Source: a bacterium (GTDB lineage: Bacteria; UBA8248; JACPRG01; G963555815). Taken from it: a stretch of 64,000 bases of DNA. Where the stretch lies: positions 512,001 to 576,000 of the forward strand of contig CAUVWX020000001.1 of NCBI GenBank assembly GCA_963555815.3. Reading direction: 5' to 3'. Shown piece after piece: positions 21,710 to 36,505 of the stretch (the first letter of the stretch is position 1; each line of letters opens with the position of its first letter). The notes beneath the pieces were generated by a model that saw only the letters and a list, made by a program, of their open reading frames with translations, made no database searches and was not told where the DNA came from. A program made the position numbers and the translations under genes.

Positions 21710-23128
21710 ATGGACAAAAAGCGCCGTATTTATCTTCTCCGAGACCTCCCACCCGAGGTGGTCGCCGTCGCCTTTGCGAAGACGAGCCGCTCCCCCAAGG
21801 CCTTTGACGAGATCGCCAAGGAGCTGACCGAAAGCGCCTCGGCCGAGTTCCACGAGAAATGGGTCGTCGGCTATGGCCACGCCTCGGTGGCCGAGCACGC
21901 CGTCCTCTCCATCGCCATCGAGAATGTCTCCCGTTACGCAACGGAAGTCATCGAGGCAAACCGTCTCGCCTCTTACACCGAAAAGTCCTCCCGCTATCAG
22001 GTTTTCAAGCCGGACGACTACCATGTCCCGGACGAGGTGGACGCCTCACCCCTCGGACAGGAATATCGTCAGGCCATGCGGTGGATGTTCGAGAACTATC
22101 ACGCTGTCCAGGCGAAGCTGGACGCCTTCATCAAGGAGAAAGAGGTCCTCCAAAGGAGAGAGAACGAAACGGATCGGGGATACAACGTCCGCGTTAGGGC
22201 CCACGCCCTCGACCGCTCGCGCTTTCTCCTCCCCACCGCCGCCCTGGCCAATGTGGGGATGACCGTCAACGCCCGACACCTGGAGCACGCCATCACCAAG
22301 ATGCTCTCCCACGATCTGTCCGAGGTCCGACAGATCGGGGCCACCCTGAAGGAGGTCAGCCAGGCGGCCGTCCCAACCCTCGTCAAGTATGCAGACGCCA
22401 ACGCCTACCTGAAAGACACAGGGGCAGCCCTGAAGGCGCTCACCGCCTCGATCTCGGTCGACGGCCCCCCCGTCTCAAAGGCATCCGACCCTCAGGAAAA
22501 TTATGCCCGGCTGGTCCAGGTCCCCGAAAATCCAGACGTCGCCCTGGCGGCGGCCGTCTTGTTCAAATACAGCCACCTCCCCTACGAGGTCATCCGGGAG
22601 AGGGTGGCCCAGATGCCCCGAGAGACTCGGGAAAAAGTTATCGAAGAGGCCCTGAGCCGAATAGAACGTTTTGACATCCCCATCCGGGAGATGGAGTACC
22701 TGACCTACACCTTCGAGTGTCTCGTGGACCAGGGGGCCTTCCTCGACCTCAAGCGCCACCGGATGTGCAGCCAGAGCATCCAAGCCCCGACCATCCGCCA
22801 CGGGTTCACGATCCCCGAGCTCGTCGAGGACGCCGGGGTGAAACAAGAATATCTGGCGGGGGTGGACAAGGCCGAAGAATGCTTCGAGAAGTTTTTGGCG
22901 GATTTTCCGAACGAGGCCCCCTACTTTGTCTTAAACGCCCATCACCGCCGCTTCCTTTGGCAGATGAACCTCCGGGAGGTGATGCACGTGGTGAAGCTCC
23001 GCTCCGACCCCAAGGGGCACTTCACCTACCGGATGGCGGCTCAGCAGATCTACCACGAGGTCTCCCGAGTCCACCCCCAGATCGCACGCTATATCGAGGT
23101 GAATTTAGAGCCCGCCAGCGGGAGATAA
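21710..23128 (+). CDS. thyX: FAD-dependent thymidylate synthase, long two-domain type
   Basis: GHASVAEHA, EKSSRY, DLKRHR and NLRE motifs spread over duplicated Thy1 domains. Confidence 0.85.
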   Translation: MDKKRRIYLLRDLPPEVVAVAFAKTSRSPKAFDEIAKELTESASAEFHEKWVVGYGHASVAEHAVLSIAIENVSRYATEVIEANRLASYTEKSSRYQVFKPDDYHVPDEVDASPLGQEYRQAMRWMFENYHAVQAKLDAFIKEKEVLQRRENETDRGYNVRVRAHALDRSRFLLPTAALANVGMTVNARHLEHAITKMLSHDLSEVRQIGATLKEVSQAAVPTLVKYADANAYLKDTGAALKALTASISVDGPPVSKASDPQENYARLVQVPENPDVALAAAVLFKYSHLPYEVIRERVAQMPRETREKVIEEALSRIERFDIPIREMEYLTYTFECLVDQGAFLDLKRHRMCSQSIQAPTIRHGFTIPELVEDAGVKQEYLAGVDKAEECFEKFLADFPNEAPYFVLNAHHRRFLWQMNLREVMHVVKLRSDPKGHFTYRMAAQQIYHEVSRVHPQIARYIEVNLEPASGR

Positions 23129-23324: not shown

Positions 23325-24503
23325 GTGCCTATCAAACCGCACGGCGGGGTCCTCGTTGACCGGATGGTCCGGGAGGAGGAGCGGCCCGCCTTGGACAAAA
23401 AAGCCCAAGGGCTGCCGAAAATCGCCCTGTCGGCCCAGGAGCATTCCGATCTCGAACTCATCGCGACGGGGGCCTACAGCCCCCTAAGGGGATTCATGGA
23501 GGAGGAGGACTACCAGGCTGTGGTGGAGGACCAGCACCTCGCCTCGGGCCTTCCCTGGACGCTTCCCATCGTCCTCGGGGTGGACGAGAAGACGGCCCAG
23601 ACCCTTTCCATAGGTGACGAGATTACCCTCACGGTCGGGAAGGAAACGACCGGGCTTCTTCGGGTCACCTCTCAGTGGAAGCCGGACAAGGAGAGGGAGG
23701 TGGAGCAGGTCTTCGGGACAAAAGATTCGGACCACCCCGGGGTTCTCCAGGTCTTCGAGCGAGGCCCTGTCCTCATCGGGGGGCCTATTAAACTCTTTCG
23801 AAGAGGGGCCGCCACCGAGTGGTCCAACTTCCATCTGGAACCCAAGGAGACCCGCCTTCTCTTTCAGCTCAAGGGGTGGAAGACGGTCGTGGCCTTCCAG
23901 ACCCGAAACCCCATTCATCGCGCCCACGAGTACATTCAGAAGTGCGCCCTAGAATGTGTGGACGGCCTCCTACTTCATCCCCTGGTCGGGGCCACCAAGG
24001 AGGACGACCTGGCGGCGGACCTCCGCATGGCCTCCTACAGGGTGATCCTGGAGAGCTATTTTCCCAAGAACCGGACGGTCCTCTCCGTGTTTCCGGCGGC
24101 CATGCGCTACGCCGGGCCGAAGGAGGCCATCTTCCACGCTATCGTGCGAAAGAACTACGGCTGTACCCATTTCATCGTGGGTCGGGACCACGCCGGCGTC
24201 GGATCTTACTACGGCTCCTATGACGCCCACCATATCTTCCACGAGTTCGAGGCCTCGGAGATCGGGATCACCCCCCTCTTCTTCGACCACGCCTTCTACT
24301 GCCGTGGGTGTGAGGCCATGATAACGGCCAAGACCTGCCCCCACGGGGAAAAAGAGCGCGTCTTCCTGAGCGGAACTCGTGTGAGGGAAATTTTAGACCG
24401 CGGGGAGCTTCCACCCCCCGAGGTGATGCGGCCTGAAGTCGCCCGGGTCTTGCACCAGGCTTACGCCGAGCGGGCAGGACAGGGTTCTGACGGCGGCTCT
24501 TGA
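23325..24503 (+). CDS. sat: sulfate adenylyltransferase
   Basis: QTRNPIHRAHE, MRYAGPKEA and GRDHAG motifs. Confidence 0.96.
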   Translation: MPIKPHGGVLVDRMVREEERPALDKKAQGLPKIALSAQEHSDLELIATGAYSPLRGFMEEEDYQAVVEDQHLASGLPWTLPIVLGVDEKTAQTLSIGDEITLTVGKETTGLLRVTSQWKPDKEREVEQVFGTKDSDHPGVLQVFERGPVLIGGPIKLFRRGAATEWSNFHLEPKETRLLFQLKGWKTVVAFQTRNPIHRAHEYIQKCALECVDGLLLHPLVGATKEDDLAADLRMASYRVILESYFPKNRTVLSVFPAAMRYAGPKEAIFHAIVRKNYGCTHFIVGRDHAGVGSYYGSYDAHHIFHEFEASEIGITPLFFDHAFYCRGCEAMITAKTCPHGEKERVFLSGTRVREILDRGELPPPEVMRPEVARVLHQAYAERAGQGSDGGS

Positions 24504-24514
24504 GGAGAGAGAAA

Positions 24515-25132
24515 GTGATCAAAGATAAACCCAGAGGGTTCACGGTCTGGTTCACAGGCCTTCCCTGCTCAGGGAAAAGCACGATTGCCGTTCTTCTCGG
24601 AGAGAAACTTCACGAGCGCGGTTTTCCGAACGTCGAGGTCTTCGACGGCGACGAAGTGCGCCGCAATCTCAGCGCCGACCTCGGCTTCTCAAAAGAGGAC
24701 CGCGATAAGCACATCATTCGCCTGGGATACCTCTGTCACCTCTTGACCCGAAACGGGGTTCCCAACATGGCGGCGGTCATCGCCCCCTACCGGGCCATCC
24801 GAGACGCCGTGAGGGCCGAGGTGGGGCGCTTCGTGGAGCTCTACGTCAAATGCCCTGTTGAGGTCTGTGCAAAGCGGGACGTGAAAGGGATGTACGCGAA
24901 AGCTTTTAAGGGTGAGATTAAGAATTTTACGGGGGTCTCAGACCCCTATGAAGAGCCCCTCAACCCCGAGATAACCGTCGAGACGGACAAAGAGTCGGTT
25001 GAGGAATCTGTCGCGCACATCCTCACCCGCCTGGAAGAATTCGGTTACATCGAGCCCGCCGATTACGTCTATTCCGAGGAAGAGAATCAGACCATCCAGG
25101 CCAAACTGAAAGGCTTGGGATATATCGACTAG
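24515..25132 (+). CDS. cysC: adenylyl-sulfate kinase with extra C-terminal LKGLGYID tail
   Basis: GLPCSGKST P-loop, DGDEVR, RDVKGMY, FTGVSDPYE; GTG at 24515 follows GAGGAG (alternative TTG at 24500). Confidence 0.95.
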   Translation: MIKDKPRGFTVWFTGLPCSGKSTIAVLLGEKLHERGFPNVEVFDGDEVRRNLSADLGFSKEDRDKHIIRLGYLCHLLTRNGVPNMAAVIAPYRAIRDAVRAEVGRFVELYVKCPVEVCAKRDVKGMYAKAFKGEIKNFTGVSDPYEEPLNPEITVETDKESVEESVAHILTRLEEFGYIEPADYVYSEEENQTIQAKLKGLGYID

Positions 25133-25390
25133 ATTGGGGACCAGGCGATCTCCCTCCAACTCTCCCCCTAAGAAGGGAGATAAAACCCAGTGACCCCATC
25201 GACGCGCCCTCGGAAGATCCGGGACATCAGTCGCGGAAAAGTCGTCGCCCTTTTATTCAAACGGGCCATTTTCCCCCGTCAAGCTTTTTCTACCTTCTTA
25301 CAAAACCCTGACTTTTCCCTTGACTTTAGGCCGCGTCAATCATCTAGCCTATAGACGAAGATCGTACAGCACATTTTTTGGGGGCGTTGC

Positions 25391-26215
25391 ATGGCACTGA
25401 TCCCACCGTTCTTTGTCGATTGTGTGGTCGCAATAGGAACTGATGATCCCGATGGAAATCGAACATGGATAGCGTCCGGCTTTCTCTATGGCTACCACCT
25501 AGGTGATAAACCCGATGGTAAAAAAGAATATGGGATATATCTCGTAAGTAACCGCCATGTTTTCGAAGACATGGCACAAGTCTACTTGCGGCTGAACCCA
25601 CAGGCAAATGAGCCTGATCGAGAATACACCCTTACTCTCCTAGACAATGACGGAGCGCCTCTATGGGTGCCCCATCCAAACCCTGAAATAGACGTAGCAG
25701 TAATAACGATCAATATTGGGTGGCTCGAAGAACAAGCTATGCAAGTGGCGTATTTCCGAAGTGACCTAGAAGCAAATGTTGAAAAGCTAAAAGACCTCGG
25801 AATAACTGAGGGTGACTTTGTATATGTTCTAGGCTTTCCCATGGGATTTGTAGGAGATCTGAGAAACACCGTCATAGTCCGCGGTGGTTCCATTGCTAGA
25901 ATACGCGACGTCTTGGCGGGGACCAGCCAAGAATTCCTTGTAGATGCATTTATTTTTCCAGGAAACAGTGGGGGACCGGTTGTATCAAAACCAGAGGCAT
26001 TATCGATTGAGGGGACAAAATCTCAAAAGACAGCCTTCCTCATTGGTATAGTTAAGTCGTATGTTCCGTATCGAGATGTAGCCATCAGTTTGCAGACAAA
26101 AAGGCCTAGGGTCATTTTTGAGGAGAACTCCGGCTTAGCAGCGGTTCATTCCGTCGATTGTATTCATGAAGCGATCCAGGAGCATCTCAAAAAGGAAGAA
26201 GCTAGCAAGCTATAA
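25391..26215 (+). CDS. trypsin-like serine protease
   Basis: Catalytic triad NRHV / IDVA / GNSGGP; visibly more AT-rich than its neighbours. Confidence 0.85.
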   Translation: MALIPPFFVDCVVAIGTDDPDGNRTWIASGFLYGYHLGDKPDGKKEYGIYLVSNRHVFEDMAQVYLRLNPQANEPDREYTLTLLDNDGAPLWVPHPNPEIDVAVITINIGWLEEQAMQVAYFRSDLEANVEKLKDLGITEGDFVYVLGFPMGFVGDLRNTVIVRGGSIARIRDVLAGTSQEFLVDAFIFPGNSGGPVVSKPEALSIEGTKSQKTAFLIGIVKSYVPYRDVAISLQTKRPRVIFEENSGLAAVHSVDCIHEAIQEHLKKEEASKL

Positions 26216-26295
26216 TTATCTATTACTGATGATCAGGCAGAAATGGATATCGCTCCAATTGCCCCTCCGATCATTTCACCGGACAGGCGGGCCGA

Positions 26296-27699
26296 TCAGG
26301 CTCTGGGAGAAATCACTCGCCCGCGCATCAAGGGAGAGGCGGGAAGGCCAAAGAGGTCCAGGATGGTGGGGGTCACGTCGTAGAGGCTGAGGCCGTCGAG
26401 GCGGGTTCCCAGACCGGTCCGACCCCCTTTGAGGTCTGCCTTCTTCGCCATGATGAATATCCCGTGGGTGTCGTGGTTGGCGTCGTCAGGGCCCGTGTCA
26501 TTCTCTCGGGTGTGGATGGACCTATGGCCCACGGTCCCGACAGAGCGCCAGTCCAGGTCTCCAAAATAGACGATGAGATCGGGCGGGATCCCCCGGACCT
26601 CCTGATAGACCTCCTCGGGATAGAATACGCGGGTCCCGAGGGGGCGCCCTGATTCGTCGGAAAGCTCTTCCATGCCCTGCTTCAACTCTGCCCGAATCTT
26701 CTCCACGTCATTTGGGGCGATGACCCCCTGGGGTTCCCGGCCCTTTACGTTGAGATAGATCCGGCCATAGTACCCCCCCTCTCCCCAGACCATGGTCCGG
26801 TCCCAGTTCACCTCGAGCTTGCTGAGGGAGGTGAGCTTCTTGGGGTAGGCGGAAAGGCTCAAATATTTCTCTTTCATGAGCCATTCGTTGACGCACAGCC
26901 CCCCCTCCATCCTCTTCACCCCGTGGTCAGAGAGGACGATGATGACCGTGTCCTCATCAATGCCCTCAATCAGCTCGCCGATCTCCTTGTCCACATAGCG
27001 GTAATAATCGCGGATGACGTGCTGATAGGGGTTCCCCGGGGGGTGCTTGATGTGGTCCTCATCGTGAAACTTCCAAAAGCCGTGGTGCATGCGGTCCACC
27101 CCGATCTCCATCGACATAAAAAAGTCCCACGGCTTTCGGGTGAGGAGGTGTTTAAGAACCCTAAAGCGTTTTTCTGTCATCTCGTGGATCTGTTGGAGGA
27201 GCCGCGGTTTGTCGTCGGTCCGGAATCCCTCCACGTCAAACTGGTACCCGCCGACAAGGCGCTGAATTTCCTCCTTGAGCTCAGGGGGATGCGTGAAAGG
27301 GACCTCGGAGTTCGGGGTGAGAAAGCAGGAGATGAGGCAGCCCCGGACGGGCTTCACAGGATATGAAGGAGGGACCCCGACGACCACCACCTCCCGGCCG
27401 GTGCGGCCCAGGATGTCCCACAGGGTCTCCTCTTGGACCGAGAGAGAGCTGGTGATCCCCAGGGCCCCGTACTGATAGGAGGTCCGGTTTCGGAACCCAT
27501 AGATCCCGAGTTCTCCAGGGTCCCGCCCCGTCATCATGCAGGCCCAGGCTGGAACCGTGATGGGGGGGATGGTGCTCTGAAGAGGTCCCCAGACGCCGGC
27601 CTCCATGAGCCGCCTGAGGTTCGGAAGTTCTTGTCGCCAGCGGTCAAAGACCAGGCGAGGGTCTGCGCAGTCGAGGCCCAGGAGCAAGACCTTGGTCAT
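26296..27699 (-). CDS. alkaline-phosphatase-superfamily / nucleotide pyrophosphatase-phosphodiesterase
   Basis: LGLDCA, PPITVPAW, DRMHH, SDHG and NHD motifs; ATG overlaps the upstream stop (ATGA). Confidence 0.88.
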   Translation of the reverse strand: MTKVLLLGLDCADPRLVFDRWRQELPNLRRLMEAGVWGPLQSTIPPITVPAWACMMTGRDPGELGIYGFRNRTSYQYGALGITSSLSVQEETLWDILGRTGREVVVVGVPPSYPVKPVRGCLISCFLTPNSEVPFTHPPELKEEIQRLVGGYQFDVEGFRTDDKPRLLQQIHEMTEKRFRVLKHLLTRKPWDFFMSMEIGVDRMHHGFWKFHDEDHIKHPPGNPYQHVIRDYYRYVDKEIGELIEGIDEDTVIIVLSDHGVKRMEGGLCVNEWLMKEKYLSLSAYPKKLTSLSKLEVNWDRTMVWGEGGYYGRIYLNVKGREPQGVIAPNDVEKIRAELKQGMEELSDESGRPLGTRVFYPEEVYQEVRGIPPDLIVYFGDLDWRSVGTVGHRSIHTRENDTGPDDANHDTHGIFIMAKKADLKGGRTGLGTRLDGLSLYDVTPTILDLFGLPASPLMRGRVISPRA

Positions 27700-28961
27700 G
27701 AGGCCATTTCCCTTGGGTGGGCGAGGAGGGCCGCATTCTCCTCCTCCCCCAGACACCGCGTGTAGATGGCCTCGATGGCCGACAAGGAGCGCCCTTCCGT
27801 CACCTCCTCCCGATAGGTCCGGGCCGCCCCGTCGCCCAGCCGTTTCGCCAGGGCGGGGGACTGAAGGATTTGGATGGCCCCCTCGGCCAGGGCTTTCGGT
27901 CCAGGCCGAGAGACAACGTAGCCGTTCTCGCCATGGCGAATCCCCTCGGCGGAGCCCTCACTGACGAGGATAGGCCTTCCAGCCGCCAGGTAGTTCAAGA
28001 GTTTAATGGGATAGCCGGAGCACCGAAGGCGCGGACAGACGAGGAGGTCGGCCCCCCGCATCAAACGCCACTCCTCATCCAAGGGAGGTTTCACGCGAAA
28101 GGAGACCCGGTCCGACAGCCCCAGGGCCCTCGCCAGGGCGGCATAACGGGAAGGGTCAGAATGGGTGGTGATGACCAGGCGGACTTCTGAGAGCCTCGAG
28201 GCCACCTCGGCGAACCCCTCCATCAGGAGGTCGATATCCTGATAAGGATGGAGGTTTCCCGTATAGAGGATGAAGGGATGGCGCTCTCCGTCTGTCCTGG
28301 AAGGAGTTCCATCGGCGGGGCAAAAGATCAGAGGGCGGATGCAGGAAGAGCGATCCGCCGCCACCCCCAAGGCCCGAAAGGCCCGAAGGGTTCTCTGGCA
28401 AAGGGCAATGCAGTGGTCTGACCGACGCGGAAGCTCCCGGTCCAGCAGTCGGCCCACCCAATGCGCCAGGGCCCGCTTCCACGAGGCCTGAAAATAGGTG
28501 GGGAGCTCCTCCTCAAGGAGGGTGTGGCTGTGATAGAGGACGGGAATGCCCGTCCACCTTCCGGCCAGCAGGGAGATGAGCAGCCCCTCGTAGCTGTGGG
28601 CGTGGAGGAGCTCAACCCCCTCCCTGCGGATGACCCGCAGGAGCTCTCTCAAGACGAAGAGGTCGAGAAGAGGCTTATAGAGATGAGGGCCCGGGTAGTC
28701 TACAGCATAACGAAGGGGACAGGCAGCCCGGTGGATCCGCAAGGAAGCGGTCGGACGGGAGCCCCCGAAGGGGTAAGTGACCACGTGAATCTTGTGTCCC
28801 CTCCTCTCGAGGCTCCCGGCCAGATCCTGGATAAGGACCTGAGAGCCCTGAACGCTTGGGAAGGGACAGGGGGCCACCATGGCCACCTTCCGACGAGATC
28901 CTGTTTCACCCATCTGAGGGAGCGTCTCAAGATCATCAAGAACGCTTAGAGAGCCGGTCAT
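27696..28961 (-). CDS. glycosyltransferase family 4
   Basis: LLHAHS, YTGNL and YPIKLLNYLAAGRPI GT-B motifs; start uncertain. Confidence 0.85.
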   Translation of the reverse strand: MTGSLSVLDDLETLPQMGETGSRRKVAMVAPCPFPSVQGSQVLIQDLAGSLERRGHKIHVVTYPFGGSRPTASLRIHRAACPLRYAVDYPGPHLYKPLLDLFVLRELLRVIRREGVELLHAHSYEGLLISLLAGRWTGIPVLYHSHTLLEEELPTYFQASWKRALAHWVGRLLDRELPRRSDHCIALCQRTLRAFRALGVAADRSSCIRPLIFCPADGTPSRTDGERHPFILYTGNLHPYQDIDLLMEGFAEVASRLSEVRLVITTHSDPSRYAALARALGLSDRVSFRVKPPLDEEWRLMRGADLLVCPRLRCSGYPIKLLNYLAAGRPILVSEGSAEGIRHGENGYVVSRPGPKALAEGAIQILQSPALAKRLGDGAARTYREEVTEGRSLSAIEAIYTRCLGEEENAALLAHPREMAS

Positions 28962-28971
28962 CTCTCTTTAC

Positions 28972-30648
28972 TCATTCCAGGTATCCAAGGTCCCGAAGCC
29001 GCCGGAAGGCCGTGCCTTCCCACCCCTGGGCCGCCGAAGGCGTTTCTTCCCCTGTCACGGCAACGGGGACGGGATGAGGCTCAGGGGCGCTCAGGATTTC
29101 TTCCAAGACCCGACCGTCCATCCCCACCGAAGGGGTGATCCCCAAAAGAGCGAGAAGCGTCGGGGCAAAGTCCACAAGATGGGGGGTGAACTGGCACTTC
29201 CCCAGGCGCACCCCCTCACCTGAGAGGACAAAGAATCCCTCTGGTCGGTGTGAGCCGTTCATCCCCCGGCCCCTGGCCCCCTCCACTCCCTGGAGAGACC
29301 GAACGAAGGGGCCCTTGGAGCGGGCTGGACTTCGAAGGCAGGAGTAGCTATAGCCCTCGTCGAGGGCGAGCTCTAGGAGAATGTCAGGAACCCGGCCCAC
29401 AAAGGGACCCCAGTAAACCTCCTCTCGCCGAAGGGCCCGCTCAACGAGGCGCCTCCCCGTGACGGGGTGTCTGAGAACCTTTAAGCGGCTGATGATCTCC
29501 TCCCTCAGATTCTCATATTCCCTGCCAGGCTCCACCGTCCCCTGAGGCTCCCTCCCTCGAAGGTTGATCCAAAGAGAGGGGAAATAGCTCAGCTCCTCGG
29601 AATAGACCCGGGTCTTCGCCCATTTGATCTGGCCGAAACGCAAGCGGGACTCCAACCCATTTGCCAGCTTGCCTCCGCCTGCACGAAAGACCTGTTCTTG
29701 AACCCTCCTCGGGAGATAGCCGAGGCCCAGCGTCTTCAGGGCTGAAAGGGCCCGGTAGCCCGCCCCCACTTTTCGAAAGGTCAGATGGCCCTCCCCGGCC
29801 AGCCAAGCGTTTAAGTGGATAATCTGGTTTCCTGTCCCCCCCGCCCCGTGGTCCGATACGACGAGGACTGTGACGTCATCGGGCGCCTTTTGCAGCAGGG
29901 AACCGATGGCTGAATCCACACGACGGTAGACATCTCGGATGGCGTCTCCAAAGCGCCTCGCCCCCTCTGAGTCATATCGGGGAGAGGATGGGTCGAAGAA
30001 CTTCCAGAAATGATGGCATACCGTATCTGTCTGGCCGAAGACGACACAGAAGCAATCCCACGTTTCCCGGCCCAGGAGGTACTCCGCCACGCGAGTTTCC
30101 TGCTCCAGCGATTTCAGGATCTCTTGATAGGCCCGCTCGTGCCAGCCCTTTCCGATCCGATCCTCCCGGCAAGCCGAGAGGGGGAAGAGTCCCGCCTCCT
30201 TGATGACCTCCTGGTAGAGCCCTCGAGGATGAAAAAAACTCTCGTTGAGACGCCAGGCCAGGGGGGAGTCGAATCCGCTGACCATACAGCCGTTGACAGC
30301 TTCAGGGGGGTATGTGGCGGGCATGCCGACGACGGCGACTCTTCGGCCGGCCTCACTGAGGATCCCCCAAAGACTAGAACTTTGCCGGTCTCGGGAGCTG
30401 GCGAATCGGACGGCATAGCGGCCGCCCTCCCTCAAGGTGAAGTCCACGAGACCGTGCCGCCCGGGGTTCTGACCGGTCATAAAGGAGGTCCAGGCGGGAT
30501 AGGTGGAGGGGGGAAGGGTCGACCGGACTCGCCCATAGGCCCCCTCCTTGAGGAGACGGGCCAGATGGGGGAGATCTCCCGCTCGGGCCCACGGCTCGAT
30601 GAGGTCCAGGGTGCCGGCGTCGACGCCGATGATGAGGAGGCGTCTCAA
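28972..30648 (-). CDS. alkaline-phosphatase-superfamily / nucleotide pyrophosphatase-phosphodiesterase
   Basis: IGVDAG, PPSTYPAW, DTVCH, SDHG, GSHRPEG; ends LRDLGYLE. Confidence 0.88.
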   Translation of the reverse strand: MRRLLIIGVDAGTLDLIEPWARAGDLPHLARLLKEGAYGRVRSTLPPSTYPAWTSFMTGQNPGRHGLVDFTLREGGRYAVRFASSRDRQSSSLWGILSEAGRRVAVVGMPATYPPEAVNGCMVSGFDSPLAWRLNESFFHPRGLYQEVIKEAGLFPLSACREDRIGKGWHERAYQEILKSLEQETRVAEYLLGRETWDCFCVVFGQTDTVCHHFWKFFDPSSPRYDSEGARRFGDAIRDVYRRVDSAIGSLLQKAPDDVTVLVVSDHGAGGTGNQIIHLNAWLAGEGHLTFRKVGAGYRALSALKTLGLGYLPRRVQEQVFRAGGGKLANGLESRLRFGQIKWAKTRVYSEELSYFPSLWINLRGREPQGTVEPGREYENLREEIISRLKVLRHPVTGRRLVERALRREEVYWGPFVGRVPDILLELALDEGYSYSCLRSPARSKGPFVRSLQGVEGARGRGMNGSHRPEGFFVLSGEGVRLGKCQFTPHLVDFAPTLLALLGITPSVGMDGRVLEEILSAPEPHPVPVAVTGEETPSAAQGWEGTAFRRLRDLGYLE

Positions 30649-31739
30649 GACCCAATCCCCTTCTTTGCCCCACTGGGGTCCACCGCGGTCTCTTCCTTAC
30701 CCACGGCTTCGCCCAAGACGCCTTCCGCGGCCCCGGCGACCTCCCCCTTACATTGATGATACGCGTGGGAGCGCAACAGGAAGATGAAGCCTCCGAGAAG
30801 GCTGATGAACCCGCCTACGAGAAAGCCGAGAAAGGCGAGGAGGATGGCAGCCTCCGCCTCGATCCCCACCCGAGTAAGGAAGAAGACAAAGGCCCCCTCA
30901 CGGACCCCGATCCCGGCCACAGAAAGAGGGATGACCGTCGCCGTGATCATCAGGGGCCCGACGAAGAGGATGTCCAAGGGCCTGACCGGGGCTTGCACCG
31001 AAAGGGCCGTCCCGTAATACATGAGCGTGGTCCCAAGGTGGACCAGAATAGCGAGCCCGACCGCCTGAACAATGAGGACCCGGTGGCGACGATAGATGGT
31101 GATGGTTTCGACGAAACGGCCCATCTTCTCCGCCCATCCTCCCGATTTCCACCTCCTGATGTCGACGAGTCGGCCAAAGAGCCCGGGAAAAAGGAGGAGG
31201 ATCAGGGACAGGGAGAGGGGAACACAAAAGATGAGGAGAAGGGAGAAGACCCCTTGCCTTCCAACAAACCTGGCGCCAGCAAATGAGGTGACTGCCACCA
31301 AAAAGGAGAGAGAGAACAGCCCGATCACCTTGTCTACCAATGTGACTGAAACCGAGGCCGCCGTTCGGCCGGAATACTTGGCCATGTCATACGTCCGATA
31401 GACGTCAAGGCCGATGGTGCTCGGCGTGAAGGTGCCGAAGAAACGGCCTTCGAGGAAGGAAGAGATGAGAACTTTTAAAGGGACGGCGAGATCCTGTCCC
31501 TTCAGAAGCAATCGCCACCGAAGGATGCTCGAGAATACCCCTCCCGCCTTGAAGAAGAGCGCCAGGAGGAGCCAGGCGGGGGCCATATCCCGGACGACGA
31601 CCCAAAGTCGATCAAAATCCACCTGCCAAAGGAGGGTGAGGATGAGCAGGACGCTCACCCCGACCTTCAAAAGGGTCCCCCAACCCCCTCGAAGGGCGTG
31701 GGAGACTCTTGTCACCAGACCTGCCATCTCAGTCCTCAT
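30645..31739 (-). CDS. lysylphosphatidylglycerol-synthase TM domain / flippase-like membrane protein (UPF0104)
   Basis: RWRLLL, PSTIGLD and P.SVAGIGVREG motifs; multiple TM helices. Confidence 0.82.
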   Translation of the reverse strand: MRTEMAGLVTRVSHALRGGWGTLLKVGVSVLLILTLLWQVDFDRLWVVVRDMAPAWLLLALFFKAGGVFSSILRWRLLLKGQDLAVPLKVLISSFLEGRFFGTFTPSTIGLDVYRTYDMAKYSGRTAASVSVTLVDKVIGLFSLSFLVAVTSFAGARFVGRQGVFSLLLIFCVPLSLSLILLLFPGLFGRLVDIRRWKSGGWAEKMGRFVETITIYRRHRVLIVQAVGLAILVHLGTTLMYYGTALSVQAPVRPLDILFVGPLMITATVIPLSVAGIGVREGAFVFFLTRVGIEAEAAILLAFLGFLVGGFISLLGGFIFLLRSHAYHQCKGEVAGAAEGVLGEAVGKEETAVDPSGAKKGIGS

Positions 31740-33405
31740 ACCCCAGGGCCCGAAGGCGCTTCTCGATGGCGGAGGCCTCCTCGGGGAGATAGCCCTCAGA
31801 GGGAGTACCCTCAGGCGGCCGTGGACTTTCAGGAGCGCTCACCTCTTGGCCCCTCTTCTTGGGCTGAAAGTCCGCCTCAAAGATCTCAGACAAAGGCTTT
31901 CCGTCCATCTCTTTTGGGACGGAGAGGCCGAGACTATAGAGGATGGTGGGGGTGATGTCAGCGATGTGGGAGCCAGTGACCGGCCGGCCCGAGGCCACGT
32001 GAGGCCCATGAGCCAGGAAGATCCCGTCGGGGCGGTGAAAGCCGTTTGGCACCTGGGCGCTCGACCGGATGACCTCTCGGCCCCCAAACATCGGCCGACC
32101 AAGGTAGCTGTAATTTCGGGCGACGAAGAACAGGTCCGGGGCGTAGGGGGTTTCGGGCCCGTGGTAGACCTCTTCTCGATACTGCACCGCGTCCACGATC
32201 CGCTCCCCTGTCGCCGGGTCCTTCAGGGCCAGCAACGAATCGCGAAGCCGCGCGCGCAGGGCCTCGTAGGCCTCCCCCGGGGGGACGATCCCCGCTCCGT
32301 CCCGCACCACATTAATGTAGATCCCTTGAGCTGGAATGCTGGGAAAAAAGGCCTGGGTCCGATCCCAGTCCAGGGTGACCTGAACGTCGGTCCGAAAGGC
32401 GGACTTGGTCTGACGCACCCGCTTTCGGGCAAGGGCCTGAAGGGACTGCGGGATAAGGCGTTTTAGCCAGCCCACCTCGTTCAGCCCCACGGCGTGGTAG
32501 AAGAGGCGCTGCTGCAGGGCCACCCGGCCCCTCATCTTGAGGAGACCCTGCTGCTCCAGCCAGGTGCTCACGTTGATCCAGGCCTGGGTGGGTCCAAAAC
32601 CGTGGTCAGACATGACAAGAAGAAGGGTATCAGAGGAAAGCCGCTCCACGAGGCGCCCGATAAAATCATCCATCAGACGATAGCAGTCAATGACCAAGCC
32701 TCGAAGCCGACGGGCGATTTCGCTCCTGTAGAGTTCGGTCTCAGGGTCCAGATATTTCCAGAAGACGTGCTGGAGCCGGTCGGGCAAGATGAAGACCCCC
32801 ATGAAGAAATCCCAGGGGCGGCTCTCCATAAGGTGGAAGAAAAGTTTCTGCCGCTGGGAGAAGCTTTTCCGTATCAGGTCCAGGTATGCCAGGGCGTCCT
32901 CGTAGCGCTCGGCGTCGTACTTGGGCAGGTCGATATCCGGCAGGTAGTCTCCGATCTCCCGATGGATCTCCTCCTTGAGCTCCGGGGGATAGGTATAGTT
33001 CGCCTCCGGCCCCGGTGTCATCATCCCCGAGACCATGCACCCGTCCACCGCTTCGGGTGGATAGGTCATGGGGACATTGAGGATGATGGTCTTCTTTCCG
33101 ACCCCATTCAGGAGCTGCCAGAGCCGGGGGGCGCGGATAGAGGATAGACTCAGAAGGGGGCGGTCGGGATGACGGAGGGGAGAATCTCGAAAATCGAAGA
33201 CCCCGTGTTTCCCCGGGTTTACTCCCGTAATGCATGTGGACCAGGCCGTCGGTGTCACCGGTGGAACGGTGGAGGCGAGGACCCCAGAGGCTCCCCGCCT
33301 TTGGAGGTTCGCAAGATGGGGAAGCGTTCCATCCTCCATCCAGGGGCGAAGGAGATAGAAGGTGGCCCCGTCAAGACCCAGGAGGACGACCTTGGAGATG
33401 GACAT
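31729..33405 (-). CDS. alkaline-phosphatase-superfamily / nucleotide pyrophosphatase-phosphodiesterase
   Basis: LGLDGAT, PPVTPTAW, DRLQH, SDHGFG, GFHRPDG; ends LRALGYED. Confidence 0.88.
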   Translation of the reverse strand: MSISKVVLLGLDGATFYLLRPWMEDGTLPHLANLQRRGASGVLASTVPPVTPTAWSTCITGVNPGKHGVFDFRDSPLRHPDRPLLSLSSIRAPRLWQLLNGVGKKTIILNVPMTYPPEAVDGCMVSGMMTPGPEANYTYPPELKEEIHREIGDYLPDIDLPKYDAERYEDALAYLDLIRKSFSQRQKLFFHLMESRPWDFFMGVFILPDRLQHVFWKYLDPETELYRSEIARRLRGLVIDCYRLMDDFIGRLVERLSSDTLLLVMSDHGFGPTQAWINVSTWLEQQGLLKMRGRVALQQRLFYHAVGLNEVGWLKRLIPQSLQALARKRVRQTKSAFRTDVQVTLDWDRTQAFFPSIPAQGIYINVVRDGAGIVPPGEAYEALRARLRDSLLALKDPATGERIVDAVQYREEVYHGPETPYAPDLFFVARNYSYLGRPMFGGREVIRSSAQVPNGFHRPDGIFLAHGPHVASGRPVTGSHIADITPTILYSLGLSVPKEMDGKPLSEIFEADFQPKKRGQEVSAPESPRPPEGTPSEGYLPEEASAIEKRLRALGYED

Positions 33406-33486
33406 TCCTACTCACACCCTCTCAAACTAAAAACCCGCCCACGACCACGGGCCAAAGGTGGGCCCATTTCTTAACTGGAGCCAATA

Positions 33487-33538
33487 CGAGCTCTTTAACC
33501 CTCATTCAACGTATCCGAGAGCCCTCAGACGCTCCTGC
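33487..33538. repeat. 52-bp direct repeat, copy 1 (3' end of sulfatase-like gene)
   Basis: cgagctctttaaccctcattcaacgtatccgagagccctcagacgctcctgc; 50/52 identical to 35621-35672. Confidence 0.95.
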
Positions 33539-35598
33539 AGTTCTGGGTCCACTTCAACGGGCTCCAGGTTTTCAGAGTACCGGGGGTCATTCTCGACCAA
33601 TGTGATGAAATGTTCCAGTAGTGACTCCATTTCTTCCGCTATCTTTTTTTCAGAGCCGTAGATGTTTTCTTGCTCGTTCGGATCCAATTGAAGATCGAAA
33701 AGAAATCTCTCCTGCTCCGTCTCAGGCTTTTCCTGATTGATAAATTTATATCGCCCACGAACCAAAAACCGGTGAGAACTAAGCTCGCGGCCAGGGGGCT
33801 CGCGTGAGATTTCTCCATAGATGGCCGCACTGCTCTCCTCTCCATATACGAGCGGCAACAGGCTTCTTCCCTGGAAATCCCCTAGGCCCGGAAGACCGAG
33901 GAGCTCCATGAGTGTCGGCATTAGATCCACCTGGGATCCCGACCCCTCCACCTCAAGTCCCGCGGGCAAGCTGCCGGGGTACCATAAAATGAGAGGCACC
34001 CTGAGCACTTCCTCAAAGACAGTGCCTCCATGGCCAAACCCCCGATGCTCGTAGAATTCCTCTCCATGGTCAGAAACAAAGACAATCAATGTGTTATCCA
34101 AAAACCCCCTTTCCTCTAGATTCGAGAAAAGGAATTGGAAGTTGTCATCAAAGTAACGGGTCTCTCCGTCGTATTGCGCCTGAAGGTTATGTAATTCCGC
34201 ATCCGGCAATTCCGGCGTGGTTCCATCTTCAGACGGATCCGGATGCCAAGTCAGACGCTCACCCGGATAACGGGGATCGAACAAGCGATCGTAGGGTTCA
34301 GGGGGTTCATAAGGAGCGTGGGGATCTAAGTAGTGCAAATAGACAAAGAATTTCGTCCTCTGGCCATCATAGTTTTCCACAAATGTCACATAATCGACGT
34401 AGTTCAAGACTCCACGTGTAAACTTGTCCGCACGAGGATTGCGATTTTCTATCTCCTCTCGGTTATCATTCCCGTCTCCATCAACCTCCTGAATTAGACG
34501 AAATGCCCTGCGGAGGAGGTGGCTTTTCTTCCTATCAACGATGAAAAGGCTGGTTACAACCCTATCGGACAAAGAAACAAATTTCTTCCAAACGAGAATG
34601 CGTGGCAAAAAAACGAACTTTTTCCAGACGAAAACATTCTCTAGCGACGGTTCACTGGCGAGGATCAGGGAAGGATATATCGGCGGATTTGGAACACTAG
34701 ATCTCTGGTGGTTTCGCCTGAAGGGATTCCACATCGGGTTGTGATAGTCGCATCCTACAAGCAGGCCACTGCTTTCAGTAATCAATGGGTTCGCGATAAA
34801 CGCAGCTGTGTTGTATCCGCGTCCGCGCAGAATCTCACAAAGCGCCTTAACCGGTGCCTTCTTTTGGAATGACGTTCCGTTTATTCCATGGACTGAGGGA
34901 AATACACCGGTCAAAATCGTTGCCGTCGCCGGCGGAGTCCAACTCGCGTTCGCATAGAAATTCGTAAATTTCACCCCCTCTCCCGCGAGCCTTGAAATAA
35001 AAGGGGACGTCTCCCTGGAATAGCCGTATGTGAAGAGCCGATCGGCCCGCAACGTATCCACAAGCACCAGGAGCACATTTGGAAGTGAGCGGTCTTCGTT
35101 CCGGACCTCGCGGAGACTTTTTAGAGAATAAAATGGCCGTGCAAATTCGTAGGAAAGAAAGGCTAGCATGGAAACGGTGACACCCAGCGCAAACATGCGG
35201 GCCAGTCGCCTGGGTGTATATATCAGTCCGAACCAAAGGGCCGTGGCGATCACGATGGCCGCAGGGATCGTGAAGATGAGTCTTCGGCCGATAAAAATGG
35301 TGAACGCCAACGCGAGGAACACAACGAGGTGGAATAAAAACGTGTTTCGGCCCTGCGCCCGGCGGTCGCGATCTCCCAAAAGGCGCGAATACAGGAGAAA
35401 ATGGCCCGCTGAGACTGGGAGAATCATCAAGGAGTTCAAAATGATGGCGGAGATCAGGAGATCCAAAAGATCGATCGCCGCGAAGGGATTGATCTCAGGT
35501 CTTTGGAAGGCCAGGAGGGCCGTTTCAAATACGCCCAGGCCTGCTGAGACCGCCAGCCATCCCAAAAAATCTCGCCGAAGTAGGGACCAGCGGTTCAT
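33502..35598 (-). CDS. membrane-anchored sulfatase-like hydrolase/transferase
   Basis: About 5 N-terminal TM helices, then PNVLLVLVDTLRAD, ASWTPPA, DPHAPY, SDHGEEF.EH...HG; ends LRALGYVE. Confidence 0.88.
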   Translation of the reverse strand: MNRWSLLRRDFLGWLAVSAGLGVFETALLAFQRPEINPFAAIDLLDLLISAIILNSLMILPVSAGHFLLYSRLLGDRDRRAQGRNTFLFHLVVFLALAFTIFIGRRLIFTIPAAIVIATALWFGLIYTPRRLARMFALGVTVSMLAFLSYEFARPFYSLKSLREVRNEDRSLPNVLLVLVDTLRADRLFTYGYSRETSPFISRLAGEGVKFTNFYANASWTPPATATILTGVFPSVHGINGTSFQKKAPVKALCEILRGRGYNTAAFIANPLITESSGLLVGCDYHNPMWNPFRRNHQRSSVPNPPIYPSLILASEPSLENVFVWKKFVFLPRILVWKKFVSLSDRVVTSLFIVDRKKSHLLRRAFRLIQEVDGDGNDNREEIENRNPRADKFTRGVLNYVDYVTFVENYDGQRTKFFVYLHYLDPHAPYEPPEPYDRLFDPRYPGERLTWHPDPSEDGTTPELPDAELHNLQAQYDGETRYFDDNFQFLFSNLEERGFLDNTLIVFVSDHGEEFYEHRGFGHGGTVFEEVLRVPLILWYPGSLPAGLEVEGSGSQVDLMPTLMELLGLPGLGDFQGRSLLPLVYGEESSAAIYGEISREPPGRELSSHRFLVRGRYKFINQEKPETEQERFLFDLQLDPNEQENIYGSEKKIAEEMESLLEHFITLVENDPRYSENLEPVEVDPELQERLRALGYVE

Positions 35599-35620
35599 AC
35601 TGTGTGCACCAAGCTCGAGT

Positions 35621-35672
35621 CGAGCCCTTTAACCCTCATTCAACGTATCCGAGAGCCTTCAGACGCTCCTGC
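35621..35672. repeat. 52-bp direct repeat, copy 2 (upstream of sulfatase-like gene)
   Basis: cgagccctttaaccctcattcaacgtatccgagagccttcagacgctcctgc. Confidence 0.95.
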
Positions 35673-35779
35673 GGTATCGTCGGCGGGGCCGTGGAGGCGA
35701 GCAGGCTTTCCAGGTCAGGTGCCCCAACAACCGCCGGCCCGGCTGCCACATCCACTTCGGTGCGGAGGATGAAATGCAC
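35636..35779 (-). CDS. 47-aa ORF ending QERLKALGYVE (small protein or gene remnant)
   Basis: GTG directly after the gcvH stop, with AGGAGG inside the gcvH 3' end: MHFILRTEVDVAAGPAVVGAPDLESLLASTAPPTIPQERLKALGYVE*. Confidence 0.45.
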   Translation of the reverse strand: MHFILRTEVDVAAGPAVVGAPDLESLLASTAPPTIPQERLKALGYVE

Positions 35780-36169
35780 TTAGCCGCCCTCCTCCTTAAC
35801 GTAGGCACCATAAGCCTCAGCGGAGAGCAGGCCATCCAGCTCGCCGAGGTCCGACATCTCAATGACAACCATCCAGCCATCCTCATAAGGGTCGGAGTTG
35901 ATCACCTCGGGCTGCTCTTCAAGAGCGGAATTGACCTGGGTCACCTTGCCCGAGACCGGGGCAAAAAGGTCGGAAACCGCTTTGACAGACTCCACCGTCC
36001 CAAAGGAATTGCTGGCTTCCATCTCAGCGCCCACCTTAGGAAGCTCCACGTGGACCACGTCCCCGAGCTCCGCCTGGGCGTGCTCCGTGATCCCCACCGT
36101 GGCGTGGCCCCCATCCACACGGACCCACTCGTGCTTCCTTGAGTACTTCAGCTCCTCAGGAAATTCCAT
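35780..36169 (-). CDS. gcvH: glycine cleavage system H protein
   Basis: HEWV, lipoyl-lysine motif ESVKAVSD, NSDPY. Confidence 0.95.
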   Translation of the reverse strand: MEFPEELKYSRKHEWVRVDGGHATVGITEHAQAELGDVVHVELPKVGAEMEASNSFGTVESVKAVSDLFAPVSGKVTQVNSALEEQPEVINSDPYEDGWMVVIEMSDLGELDGLLSAEAYGAYVKEEGG

Positions 36170-36505
36170 CGCCACGCTAGACTCCTCCCTACTCATTCAT
36201 CCCCGAAGCCACTGAGGAACAAATGGGCCCTATCTTTTCCCAGATGCCCGTCATTCGCGCCTGTCGTCGAGAACTCTGAATACCAAGATGCCAGAGAGCC
36301 TCGACCCGCGCAAGACTGAATTGGAAGGGGGCGATTGAAGGCTTCCTATTGGCTACTCGACTGCAGCATCCTCTGTATGGCAAAGGATCTGTCTATGTGT
36401 TTCCAGGATTTGATGCGGAAGGAGCGAGTGAAGGGCCCCCCCGATGTGAGGACCCTCGGAAAAGTCTGCGAACCCTAGTGCGGTCTTGGGCGGGATTTTA
36501 GTCTT

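Follow-up and report, generated by a model that had tools for sequence, protein, structure and literature searches.

A portable C-terminal tail with an invariant tyrosine in a predicted alkaline phosphatase-fold sulfation cluster of a UBA8248 bacterium

The 64,000-nucleotide (nt) stretch of DNA analyzed here (from now on the window: positions 512,001 to 576,000 of contig CAUVWX020000001.1, assembly GCA_963555815.3, from a bacterium of the GTDB lineage UBA8248) contains a cluster in which sat and cysC, the genes for ATP sulfurylase and adenosine 5'-phosphosulfate (APS) kinase, converge on an operon encoding a membrane sulfatase-like enzyme of the type with five transmembrane segments, a soluble enzyme C, a flippase-like protein, a soluble enzyme B, a glycosyltransferase of family 4 (GT4), and a third soluble enzyme. 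The three soluble enzymes resemble nucleotide pyrophosphatases/phosphodiesterases (NPPs) of the alkaline phosphatase (AP) fold. Several proteins of the cluster end in the same short motif, LxxLGY followed by one to three residues, and it is with this tail, its carriers and its possible role that we are concerned here. The members of the cluster are:

23325..24503, plus strand: sat, ATP sulfurylase (TIGR00339 and NF003166 above cut-off; the only copy found in the genome by tblastn)
24500..25132, plus strand: cysC, APS kinase with a 26-residue tailed extension (TIGR00455, 212.8 bits against a cut-off of 138.7)
25070..25132, plus strand: CysC tail, residues 191-210, of the form [YF][ST]xEExxx[IV]xx[RK]LxxLGY[LI] with the invariant Tyr208 (alignment A4 and column counts)
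26296..27699, minus strand: tailless NPP-like enzyme of clade 1, 467 residues (PF01663; Thr48 nucleophile and two-metal ligands), the proposed loader
27696..28961, minus strand: GT4 glycosyltransferase (PF13439, PF00534)
28972..30648, minus strand: tailed NPP-like enzyme B, 558 residues including a basic insertion (net +9); the tail lies near 28975-29007
30645..31739, minus strand: flippase-like membrane protein (LPG_synthase_TM; PF03706, and TIGR00374 above cut-off)
31729..33405, minus strand: tailed NPP-like enzyme C, 558 residues including a basic insertion (net +10); residues 539-558 form the tail (31732-31791)
33502..35598, minus strand: membrane-anchored sulfatase-like enzyme (PF00884; 4-5 transmembrane segments, then the catalytic domain; GC 0.51); tail at about 33505-33555

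The block of NPP-like, GT4 and flippase-like genes and the convergent sat-cysC pair are kept in genomes G001 and G003-G005 (the block is broken up in G003); in G002 the tailless enzyme lies beside sat-cysC, and in G006 apart from the tailed cysC.

The C-terminus of CysC reads KLKGLGYID and lies 26 residues past LEEFGYI, the end of a kinase core whose P-loop (GLPCSGKST) is intact and which is assigned without difficulty to the APS kinase family; solved APS kinases align with it only up to about residue 185. Enzymes B and C end in RRLRDLGYLE and KRLRALGYED, the sulfatase-like protein in ERLRALGYVE, and a neighboring open reading frame (ORF) of 47 codons (35636-35779) in ERLKALGYVE, while the NPP-like protein encoded at 26296-27699 has no tail. 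An earlier note on this DNA, made from its letters alone, had listed these five termini and the tailless exception, and all are borne out on re-reading the translations of the window. The motif is found more often than chance allows: LxxLGY followed by one to three terminal residues closes 7 of the 2,079 ORFs of at least 200 codons in the genome, against 0.14 expected, the seven being CysC, enzymes B and C, the sulfatase-like protein and three membrane sulfatase-like paralogues encoded outside the window. If up to six residues are allowed after the motif, 11 of the 103,341 stop-to-stop frames of the whole genome end with it. The acidic first half of the full motif is missing from the tail of enzyme B and from the 47-codon ORF.

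This last ORF, which the earlier note took for a stand-alone peptide, turned out to be of a different kind, namely a decayed start of gcvPA that a deletion appears to have joined to the copied 3' end of a sulfatase-like gene. The features on which this rests are:

35636..35779, minus strand: chimeric ORF of 47 codons (5' remnant of gcvPA and last codons of a sulfatase-like gene), a scar
33487..33541, no strand: copy 1 of a 55-nt direct repeat (last part of the sulfatase-like gene plus the next 15 nt; family D2)
35621..35675, no strand: copy 2 of the repeat (95%), remnant end of the deleted tandem sulfatase-like gene
35780..36196, minus strand: second copy of gcvH, left from a duplicated gcvH-gcvPA stretch (TIGR00527; paralogue at C1:74480-74896)

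The intact gcvPA at C1:74479 shares 69% identity at its start with codons 1-29 of the ORF, and in the DNA the likeness continues through gcvH and upstream of it (72% over 657 columns). The last 12 codons of the ORF, together with the 15 bases downstream, repeat the final part of the sulfatase-like gene as a 55-nt copy (95%). In G001, which belongs to the same genus, a stop interrupts the gcvPA remnant at codon 15 and the tail is absent; two tandem sulfatase-like genes follow, and the junction between them matches the scar-to-gene junction of the window. The simplest history suggested by this comparison is a deletion through which the gcvPA remnant came to abut the closing codons of the first tandem gene. 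Misassembly was considered and rejected, since the junction is spanned by contigs of all four public runs (from four studies, one of them possibly the source), for which no differences are listed at this place. The ORF keeps only 11 residues of the tail after a Pro, with no full acidic helix, and given the stop at codon 15 in G001 its frame is not conserved in kin as one would expect of a dedicated microprotein. Translation of the ORF behind gcvH is conceivable, though a place in the sulfation pathway proposed below is improbable. The window thus has four independent tails rather than five, and the scar illustrates how a deletion can create new tail carriers. Related observations are a 36-codon fragment similar to the ORF at locus L001, the splitting of the second tandem sulfatase-like gene of G001 (L101:4964-7171) into two frames, and the intact gcvH-gcvPA operon at C1:71571-74896 of the present genome (G000); the duplication takes in gcvH and its upstream region (35780-36330 in the window; C1:71571-75400 covers the intact operon with its upstream region), and the conserved upstream stretch could be a regulatory RNA or promoter.

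The degree of conservation of the tail was studied in alignment A5, which was gathered on the whole enzyme and in which 119 rows bear a tail. The two Leu, the Gly and the Tyr of the terminal motif are invariant in 119/119 of these rows, and the aromatic position 17 residues upstream of the Tyr holds Tyr in 91 rows and Phe in 26. When C-termini were searched with a pattern that leaves the position of the terminal Tyr free, Tyr was present in 172 of 173 distinct ones; the single exception has no match to anything and looks spurious. Leu, Gly and Tyr are invariant also on carriers that are not enzymes, and in the surveyed tails the terminal Tyr is never replaced by Phe, while its distance from the C-terminus varies among carriers. 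The end of the kinase core itself, LxxxGY[LI], resembles the tail to the point of scoring 12-16 bits with the tail profile, but tolerates substitutions, unlike the tail; a guess from this likeness is that duplication of the last kinase helix gave rise to the tail. The core-terminal GY is altered in 12 of 31 tailed CysCs and 4 of 47 untailed ones, as if the tail relaxed the core, in a count in which kinship is uncontrolled. Mutual information between tail and core (119 rows, effective number 72) yielded only noise. A proteasome gate motif of the HbYX type was dropped as an explanation because a Gly precedes the Tyr and the position of the Tyr varies.

The tail has, to the extent of our searches, no annotated counterpart. 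No model for the tail or the bare peptides was found in Pfam and NCBIfam; a sequence search of the PDB with the tail profile gave unrelated acidic helices (best E 0.016), and matches in the ESM Atlas are only to clusters labelled 'hypothetical protein', of 62-113 members. A literature search, whose coverage lacked most subscription journals, retrieved no description of it. What is new here comprises the scar, the carriers without cargo, the fusions in cis, a second tailless clade and the counts that speak against CysC as the obligatory donor.

As the earlier note had suggested, a profile of the tail (A4, built from 46 tails) was used to list its carriers across genomes. It matches 980 representatives at 50% identity (E≤0.001); the tail occurs in both bacteria and archaea, on several unrelated carriers. 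These counts are lower bounds, since A4 misses real tails: those of enzyme B and of the sulfatase-like protein of this window at E≤0.05, and that of the CysC of G057 at 1e-4. By inspection, the best 150 matches are mostly proteins of 60-80 residues resembling ribbon-helix-helix (RHH) regulators, ends of CysC, ends of NPP-like enzymes, and short peptides of linker plus tail, some perhaps being partial gene calls; of the best 120 longer carriers, 111 are APS kinases and 5 PF01663 proteins, while 4 lack a domain. An extra tail is borne by CysC in 31 of the 80 best GTDB loci of its relatives, in several phyla, and the CysC tail is conserved in Chloroflexota, Planctomycetota, Acidobacteriota, Thermodesulfobacteriota and Aminicenantes. 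The RHH-like tail proteins head sat operons (among six small carriers RHH_1 scores above cut-off in one and weakly in three more), and on a plasmid of Halogeometricum borinquense one of them adjoins a tailless sulfatase-like gene in a glycan cluster. Kinase shells of 93-163 residues that have lost the catalytic core retain the tail beside the tailless enzyme (L128, L143, L172, L188), and bare tail peptides of 42-45 residues begin at a start codon of their own, which a purine-rich stretch precedes (L168, L180, L190 and related loci). Finally, the tail is fused in cis to orthologues of the clade-1 enzyme in 7 of 120 cases and in 3 of 80 loci (L139, L149, L159), fusions that arise at at least two places in the tree. 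The tail is therefore a portable module, as first supposed.

Some further variants were seen among these carriers. At L168, L180 and L190 a CobW-type GTPase gene lies between the tailless enzyme and the bare peptide, which fits a need for metal loading. A second cassette, with three large tailless NPP-like genes followed by an RHH-like tail protein of 63-64 residues, occurs at L017:11911-16415 and L243:1093-5424; three RHH-like proteins (P0250, P0392, P0393) have two tails in tandem, and four bare peptides (P0334, P0366, P0375, P0382) start with a Phe/Lys-rich, possibly membrane-binding helix. The second CysC-like gene of G043 (L242:4861-5487) has an altered P-loop and a decayed tail without terminal LGY.

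The earlier note also proposed that the CysC tail complements the tailless enzyme in trans, and that tailed CysC and tailless NPP homologues should accordingly be found together. In the 80 best CysC loci the tailless AP enzyme is present at 26 of 31 with a tailed and 16 of 49 with an untailed CysC; the loci were chosen by their likeness to the tailed query, and Fisher tests on such counts are overstated by kinship. Among the 35 CysC loci that have a clade-1 enzyme, CysC is tailed in 20, and 12 of the other 15 have an RHH-like carrier. When only the 44 CysC loci with at least 3 kb on both sides are considered, a donor is found at 21 of 21 loci with the enzyme, and the enzyme at none of 17 without a donor. 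Starting from the enzyme, 35 of 80 metagenome loci have a free or cis tail (20 on CysC, 13 on small proteins, 3 in cis; one locus has two tails, and one of the small cases is a frameshifted CysC end). The 35 well-flanked enzyme loci have a free or cis tail in 15 cases, or 22 if a tailed AP neighbor is counted, and a tail is found at 15 of 21 enzyme loci with sat or cysC nearby and at 2 of 19 without.

Whole genomes give a similar picture. Clade-1 enzymes are present in 15 of 121 Chloroflexota genomes, and matches to the tail profile in 14, with both in 6; when the 15 genomes were followed up, tailed CysC was recovered in 5 and a tail carrier of some kind in 14. Where a genome has tailed CysC but lacks the clade-1 enzyme (7 of 7 cases), a tailless enzyme of a second clade lies beside a tailed one, with sat adjacent in the five looked at. 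Tails and tailless enzymes thus travel together, but one carrier can stand in for another and CysC can be dispensed with. Complementation in trans is thus favored by the co-occurrence and by the cis fusions, as predicted, but CysC is not the obligatory donor. The further suggestion that the tail is a tag for the assembly of a complex channelling 3'-phosphoadenosine 5'-phosphosulfate (PAPS) fared less well and is weakly supported: tails retained by coreless kinase shells and by peptides without cargo argue against a pure tag of this kind, and a tail that is probably periplasmic, that of the sulfatase-like protein, argues against a single complex of five parts.

The catalytic residues of the soluble enzymes are well preserved. 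D10, T48, D202, H206, D258, H259 and H409 are conserved in 98-100% of the clade-1 rows and have equivalents in the tailed rows, so that all three enzymes of the window retain the two-metal site and the Thr nucleophile of PF01663; the active-site motif is T-V-P-A-W, T-Y-P-A-W or T-P-T-A-W, which does not match the T-F-P-N-H of characterized NPPs. A quick tree (85 of 138 rows kept after thinning) separates most tailed enzymes from two tailless clades. The tailed enzymes have an insertion of some 40 extra residues, basic in B and C, and one of them is fused to GT1/GT2 domains, from which we infer that they face a membrane-bound glycan; clade-1 enzymes have no insertion and in 8 of 80 loci form a fusion with Sat (7 of these 8 have a tailed CysC beside the fusion), which suggests that they face a nucleotide donor. 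Of 8,000 scored candidates at least 7,999 match the tailless enzyme, a family labelled only as 'alkaline phosphatase family protein', for which the tail could serve as an annotation marker. Type I sulfatases carry the signature C/S-x-P-x-R. In the sulfatase-like enzyme encoded at 33502-35598, Thr replaces the formylglycine Cys within W-T-P-P-A-T, with neither CxPxR nor the Arg, and the three paralogues elsewhere have W-T-x-P-S. Its hydropathy profile has four segments above threshold and a fifth, judged by eye, slightly below, while two paralogues show five; with sidedness taken from the basic loops, the tail is probably extracytoplasmic. A fifth membrane paralogue (G000:C1:401135-403213) is tailless and has an altered nucleophile motif (D-T-S-Q for W-T-x-P).

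No sulfotransferase of PF13469 or PF00685 was found in this genome, which is 95.7% complete (controls were positive in 2 of 14). The single CysH of the genome has the CC..RK and CxxC motifs, which we take to mark iron-sulfur enzymes able to use APS. PAPS may therefore have no other consumer here, although this is not proof. Genomes of this kind make PAPS but show no classical sulfotransferase, a puzzle on which the tail offers a handle.

Models and structural comparisons add some detail. The three soluble enzymes have the NPP fold by Foldseek and VIA-align (Z 30.3, rmsd 3.3, 343 residues aligned). In the AlphaFold2 model of enzyme C the tail forms a helix at residues 541-553 with a predicted local distance difference test (pLDDT) score of 77, after a linker at 54-58; in a natural clade-1 fusion, where the tail is present in only 10 of the 118 rows, the helix at 468-480 reaches 87/85 and the linker 61. 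The raised tail pLDDT is compatible with docking on the core, the position of the helix not being given by such scores. The VIA-align rows stop at model residues 447-475 and leave the tail helix at 468-480 essentially unmatched, which is no proof of a new fold; comparison by sequence and structure revealed no element matching the tail in solved AP-fold chains.

Two further genes lie within or beside the cluster:

25391..26215, plus strand: trypsin-like gene, not a member of the system (PF13365; GC 0.46), between the convergent operons
21710..23128: ThyX-like gene with a double domain, 472 residues, adjoining sat and also near sat in G001-G003

The trypsin-like gene is absent from the same spot in G001, G002 and G003-G005; because G001 has a different ORF there and the other family members none, the spot looks like an insertion site. 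A scan for promoters and terminators gave results at chance level, and no RNA holder is listed.

The interpretation that we favor, tentatively and with fewer chances for it than against it, is that the tail is a portable helix bearing an invariant tyrosine on a flexible linker, which would serve as a sulfuryl shuttle in a predicted AP-fold sulfation pathway. Sat and CysC, whose family assignment is clear, would make APS and PAPS by established chemistry. The tailless NPP-like enzyme, which in many loci neighbors Sat or is joined to it, would take the sulfate from APS or PAPS on its Thr and hand it to the tail Tyr, generating an aryl sulfate. Enzymes B and C would each swing their own loaded arm into their own active site and sulfate a glycolipid or glycan made by the GT4 enzyme at the inner face of the membrane, the product being exported by the flippase-like protein. 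An enzyme that lacks an arm would be served by a tail borne on CysC, on an RHH protein or on a decayed kinase, or by a bare peptide, carriers whose distribution is observed. In the weakest step of the scheme, the membrane sulfatase-like enzymes would employ an arm of this kind on the outer side. We favor the shuttle because it fits the distributions and the strict requirement for a Tyr hydroxyl, and because it has a formal parallel in DltX and PatA (see below); aryl sulfates are known donors of transferases independent of PAPS. The raised pLDDT of the tail relative to its linker and the lack of PF13469 and PF00685 matches in this genome also speak for it. That the pathway sulfates an envelope glycolipid or glycan is rather probable on its own account, judging from the gene context and from Agl7, Agl30 and Agl31. 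On a larger scale, it is possible, if somewhat speculative, that a widespread and so far undescribed route exists in bacteria and archaea in which AP-fold enzymes pass on the sulfate of APS/PAPS by way of a tyrosine-O-sulfate arm borne by a protein and seated as the case may be on the loader, the transferase, the APS kinase, an RHH regulator or a free microprotein.

Several points weigh against the shuttle. There is no evident loader for a tail outside the membrane; a conserved hydroxyl can be there merely for a hydrogen bond; the pLDDT is silent on the site of the helix; and that the group transferred is sulfate is presumed from gene context. G002 and G006 have a tailless enzyme and a tailed CysC with no homologue of B or C, which leaves the acceptor there unexplained. 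Since the tail resembles the last helix of the kinase, part of the motif may be plain helix capping. As for the distributions, 20 of the 35 well-flanked enzyme loci have no free or cis tail nearby and 13 have no nearby tail of any kind, no tail carrier was found genome-wide in G058 despite its tailless enzyme, and the swap of RHH proteins for CysC corresponds to only about 2-3 events in the tree.

Some of these difficulties disappear if the helix is a non-covalent lid or activator that completes the active site or substrate pocket of the AP-fold enzymes, in cis where fused and in trans for the tailless ones, with the Tyr hydroxyl engaged only in a hydrogen bond. Such a helix would explain the cis fusions, the cargo-free carriers and the co-occurrence equally well, would need no loader for a tail outside the cytoplasm, would suit G002 and G006, where the tailless enzyme is accompanied by the CysC tail alone, and would agree with the raised pLDDT of the modelled tails. 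A single tail would, however, have to fit two divergent cores, the two-metal NPP-like and the sulfatase-like one; the solved AP-fold chains do without a matching element, and with a lid neither the long unconserved linker nor the complete lack of Phe is accounted for. We regard it as doubtful, and hold a similarly reserved opinion of the docking tag originally envisaged in the earlier note. In the form considered here, the tailless enzyme, perhaps a pyrophosphatase or a phosphatase of 3'-phosphoadenosine 5'-phosphate helping Sat, would be the hub to which tails recruit CysC, RHH regulators and tailed enzymes, so that APS and PAPS are channelled. An amphipathic helix on a variable linker is what one expects of a tag, and the Sat fusions with their tailed CysC neighbors, the presence of the tailless AP enzyme at most tailed-CysC loci and the preponderance of APS kinases among the longer carriers all point the same way; yet tails are kept on kinase shells and bare peptides that have no cargo to bring, tailed CysC occurs in only a third of the clade-1 genomes, and the four membrane sulfatase-like paralogues of this genome probably bear their tails outside.

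Two other explanations are improbable. The tail might be a signal for localization, turnover or regulation, read by a factor encoded outside the cluster such as a protease or a membrane anchor: it is C-terminal on unrelated folds, and the basic, Phe-rich starts of P0334, P0366 and P0382 could bind membranes, but its carriers are almost all proteins of Sat/CysC/AP-fold clusters, the distance of the Tyr from the C-terminus varies, and tails are probably present on both sides of the membrane. Least likely of all, the tail would function only within the tailed enzymes, the copies on CysC, RHH proteins and peptides being debris of recombination. The scar in the window shows that such debris arises, the fragment at L001 may be another instance, and the likeness to the last helix of the kinase offers a source; against this, the CysC tail is conserved over five phylum-level groups, the profile matches number in the hundreds, and Leu, Gly and Tyr do not vary on non-enzyme carriers.

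The pathway can be compared with several known systems. The NPP of Xanthomonas (2GSN/7MW8), ENPP4/6/7 and phosphonoacetate hydrolase (1EI6) share with the soluble enzymes the fold, the Thr nucleophile and the two-metal ligands, but are only about 16% identical to them, have T-F-P-N-H in place of T-x-P-A-W, and lack both the tail and the linkage to sat/cysC. LtaS, EptA and CptA resemble the protein encoded at 33502-35598 in having an N-terminal transmembrane bundle followed by a sulfatase-like domain with Thr at the nucleophile position, but this protein scores only about 30 bits with their NCBIfam models, far below the cut-offs of 404-970 bits. LtaS, EptA and CptA use lipid donors, and are not known to have such a tail.

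A closer precedent for sulfation comes from archaea. Glycan sulfation there requires the AP-core proteins Agl30 and Agl31 of Halobacterium salinarum (PMC11980604) and the sulfatase-annotated Agl7 of Haloferax volcanii (PMC3892788); as here, AP cores lie in glycosylation clusters, one membrane-bound and one soluble, and there deletion abolishes sulfation. Homologues on haloarchaeal plasmids carry the tail. Nowhere does the main text of PMC11980604 use the words donor, PAPS or active site. For the membrane half of the cluster, gpgSDF of P. aeruginosa (PMC12713373) and hexSDF of C. difficile likewise combine a GT4 enzyme with a predicted flippase of the AglD2/YbhN type (predicted there too) and a modified glycolipid, but both are paired with a deacetylase rather than with AP-fold enzymes and sulfate activation.

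The nearest formal parallel is that of DltX (with DltB/DltD) and PatA (with PatB), in which, according to PMC12148441, a short C-terminal motif with an invariant Tyr is likewise found fused or as a separate microprotein, at loci for envelope polymers. The motif is FxYxxF there and LxxLGY here, and the partners are a membrane-bound O-acyltransferase (MBOAT) plus an SGNH protein there and AP-fold enzymes here, where neither MBOAT nor SGNH was found among the 13 genes scanned at the locus. In DltX/PatA an acyl group is transferred and the covalent Tyr intermediate has been demonstrated; here the group is presumed to be sulfuryl and the intermediate is hypothetical. If the shuttle is real, the tail would be the sulfuryl counterpart of DltX and PatA, and a natural aryl-sulfate donor.

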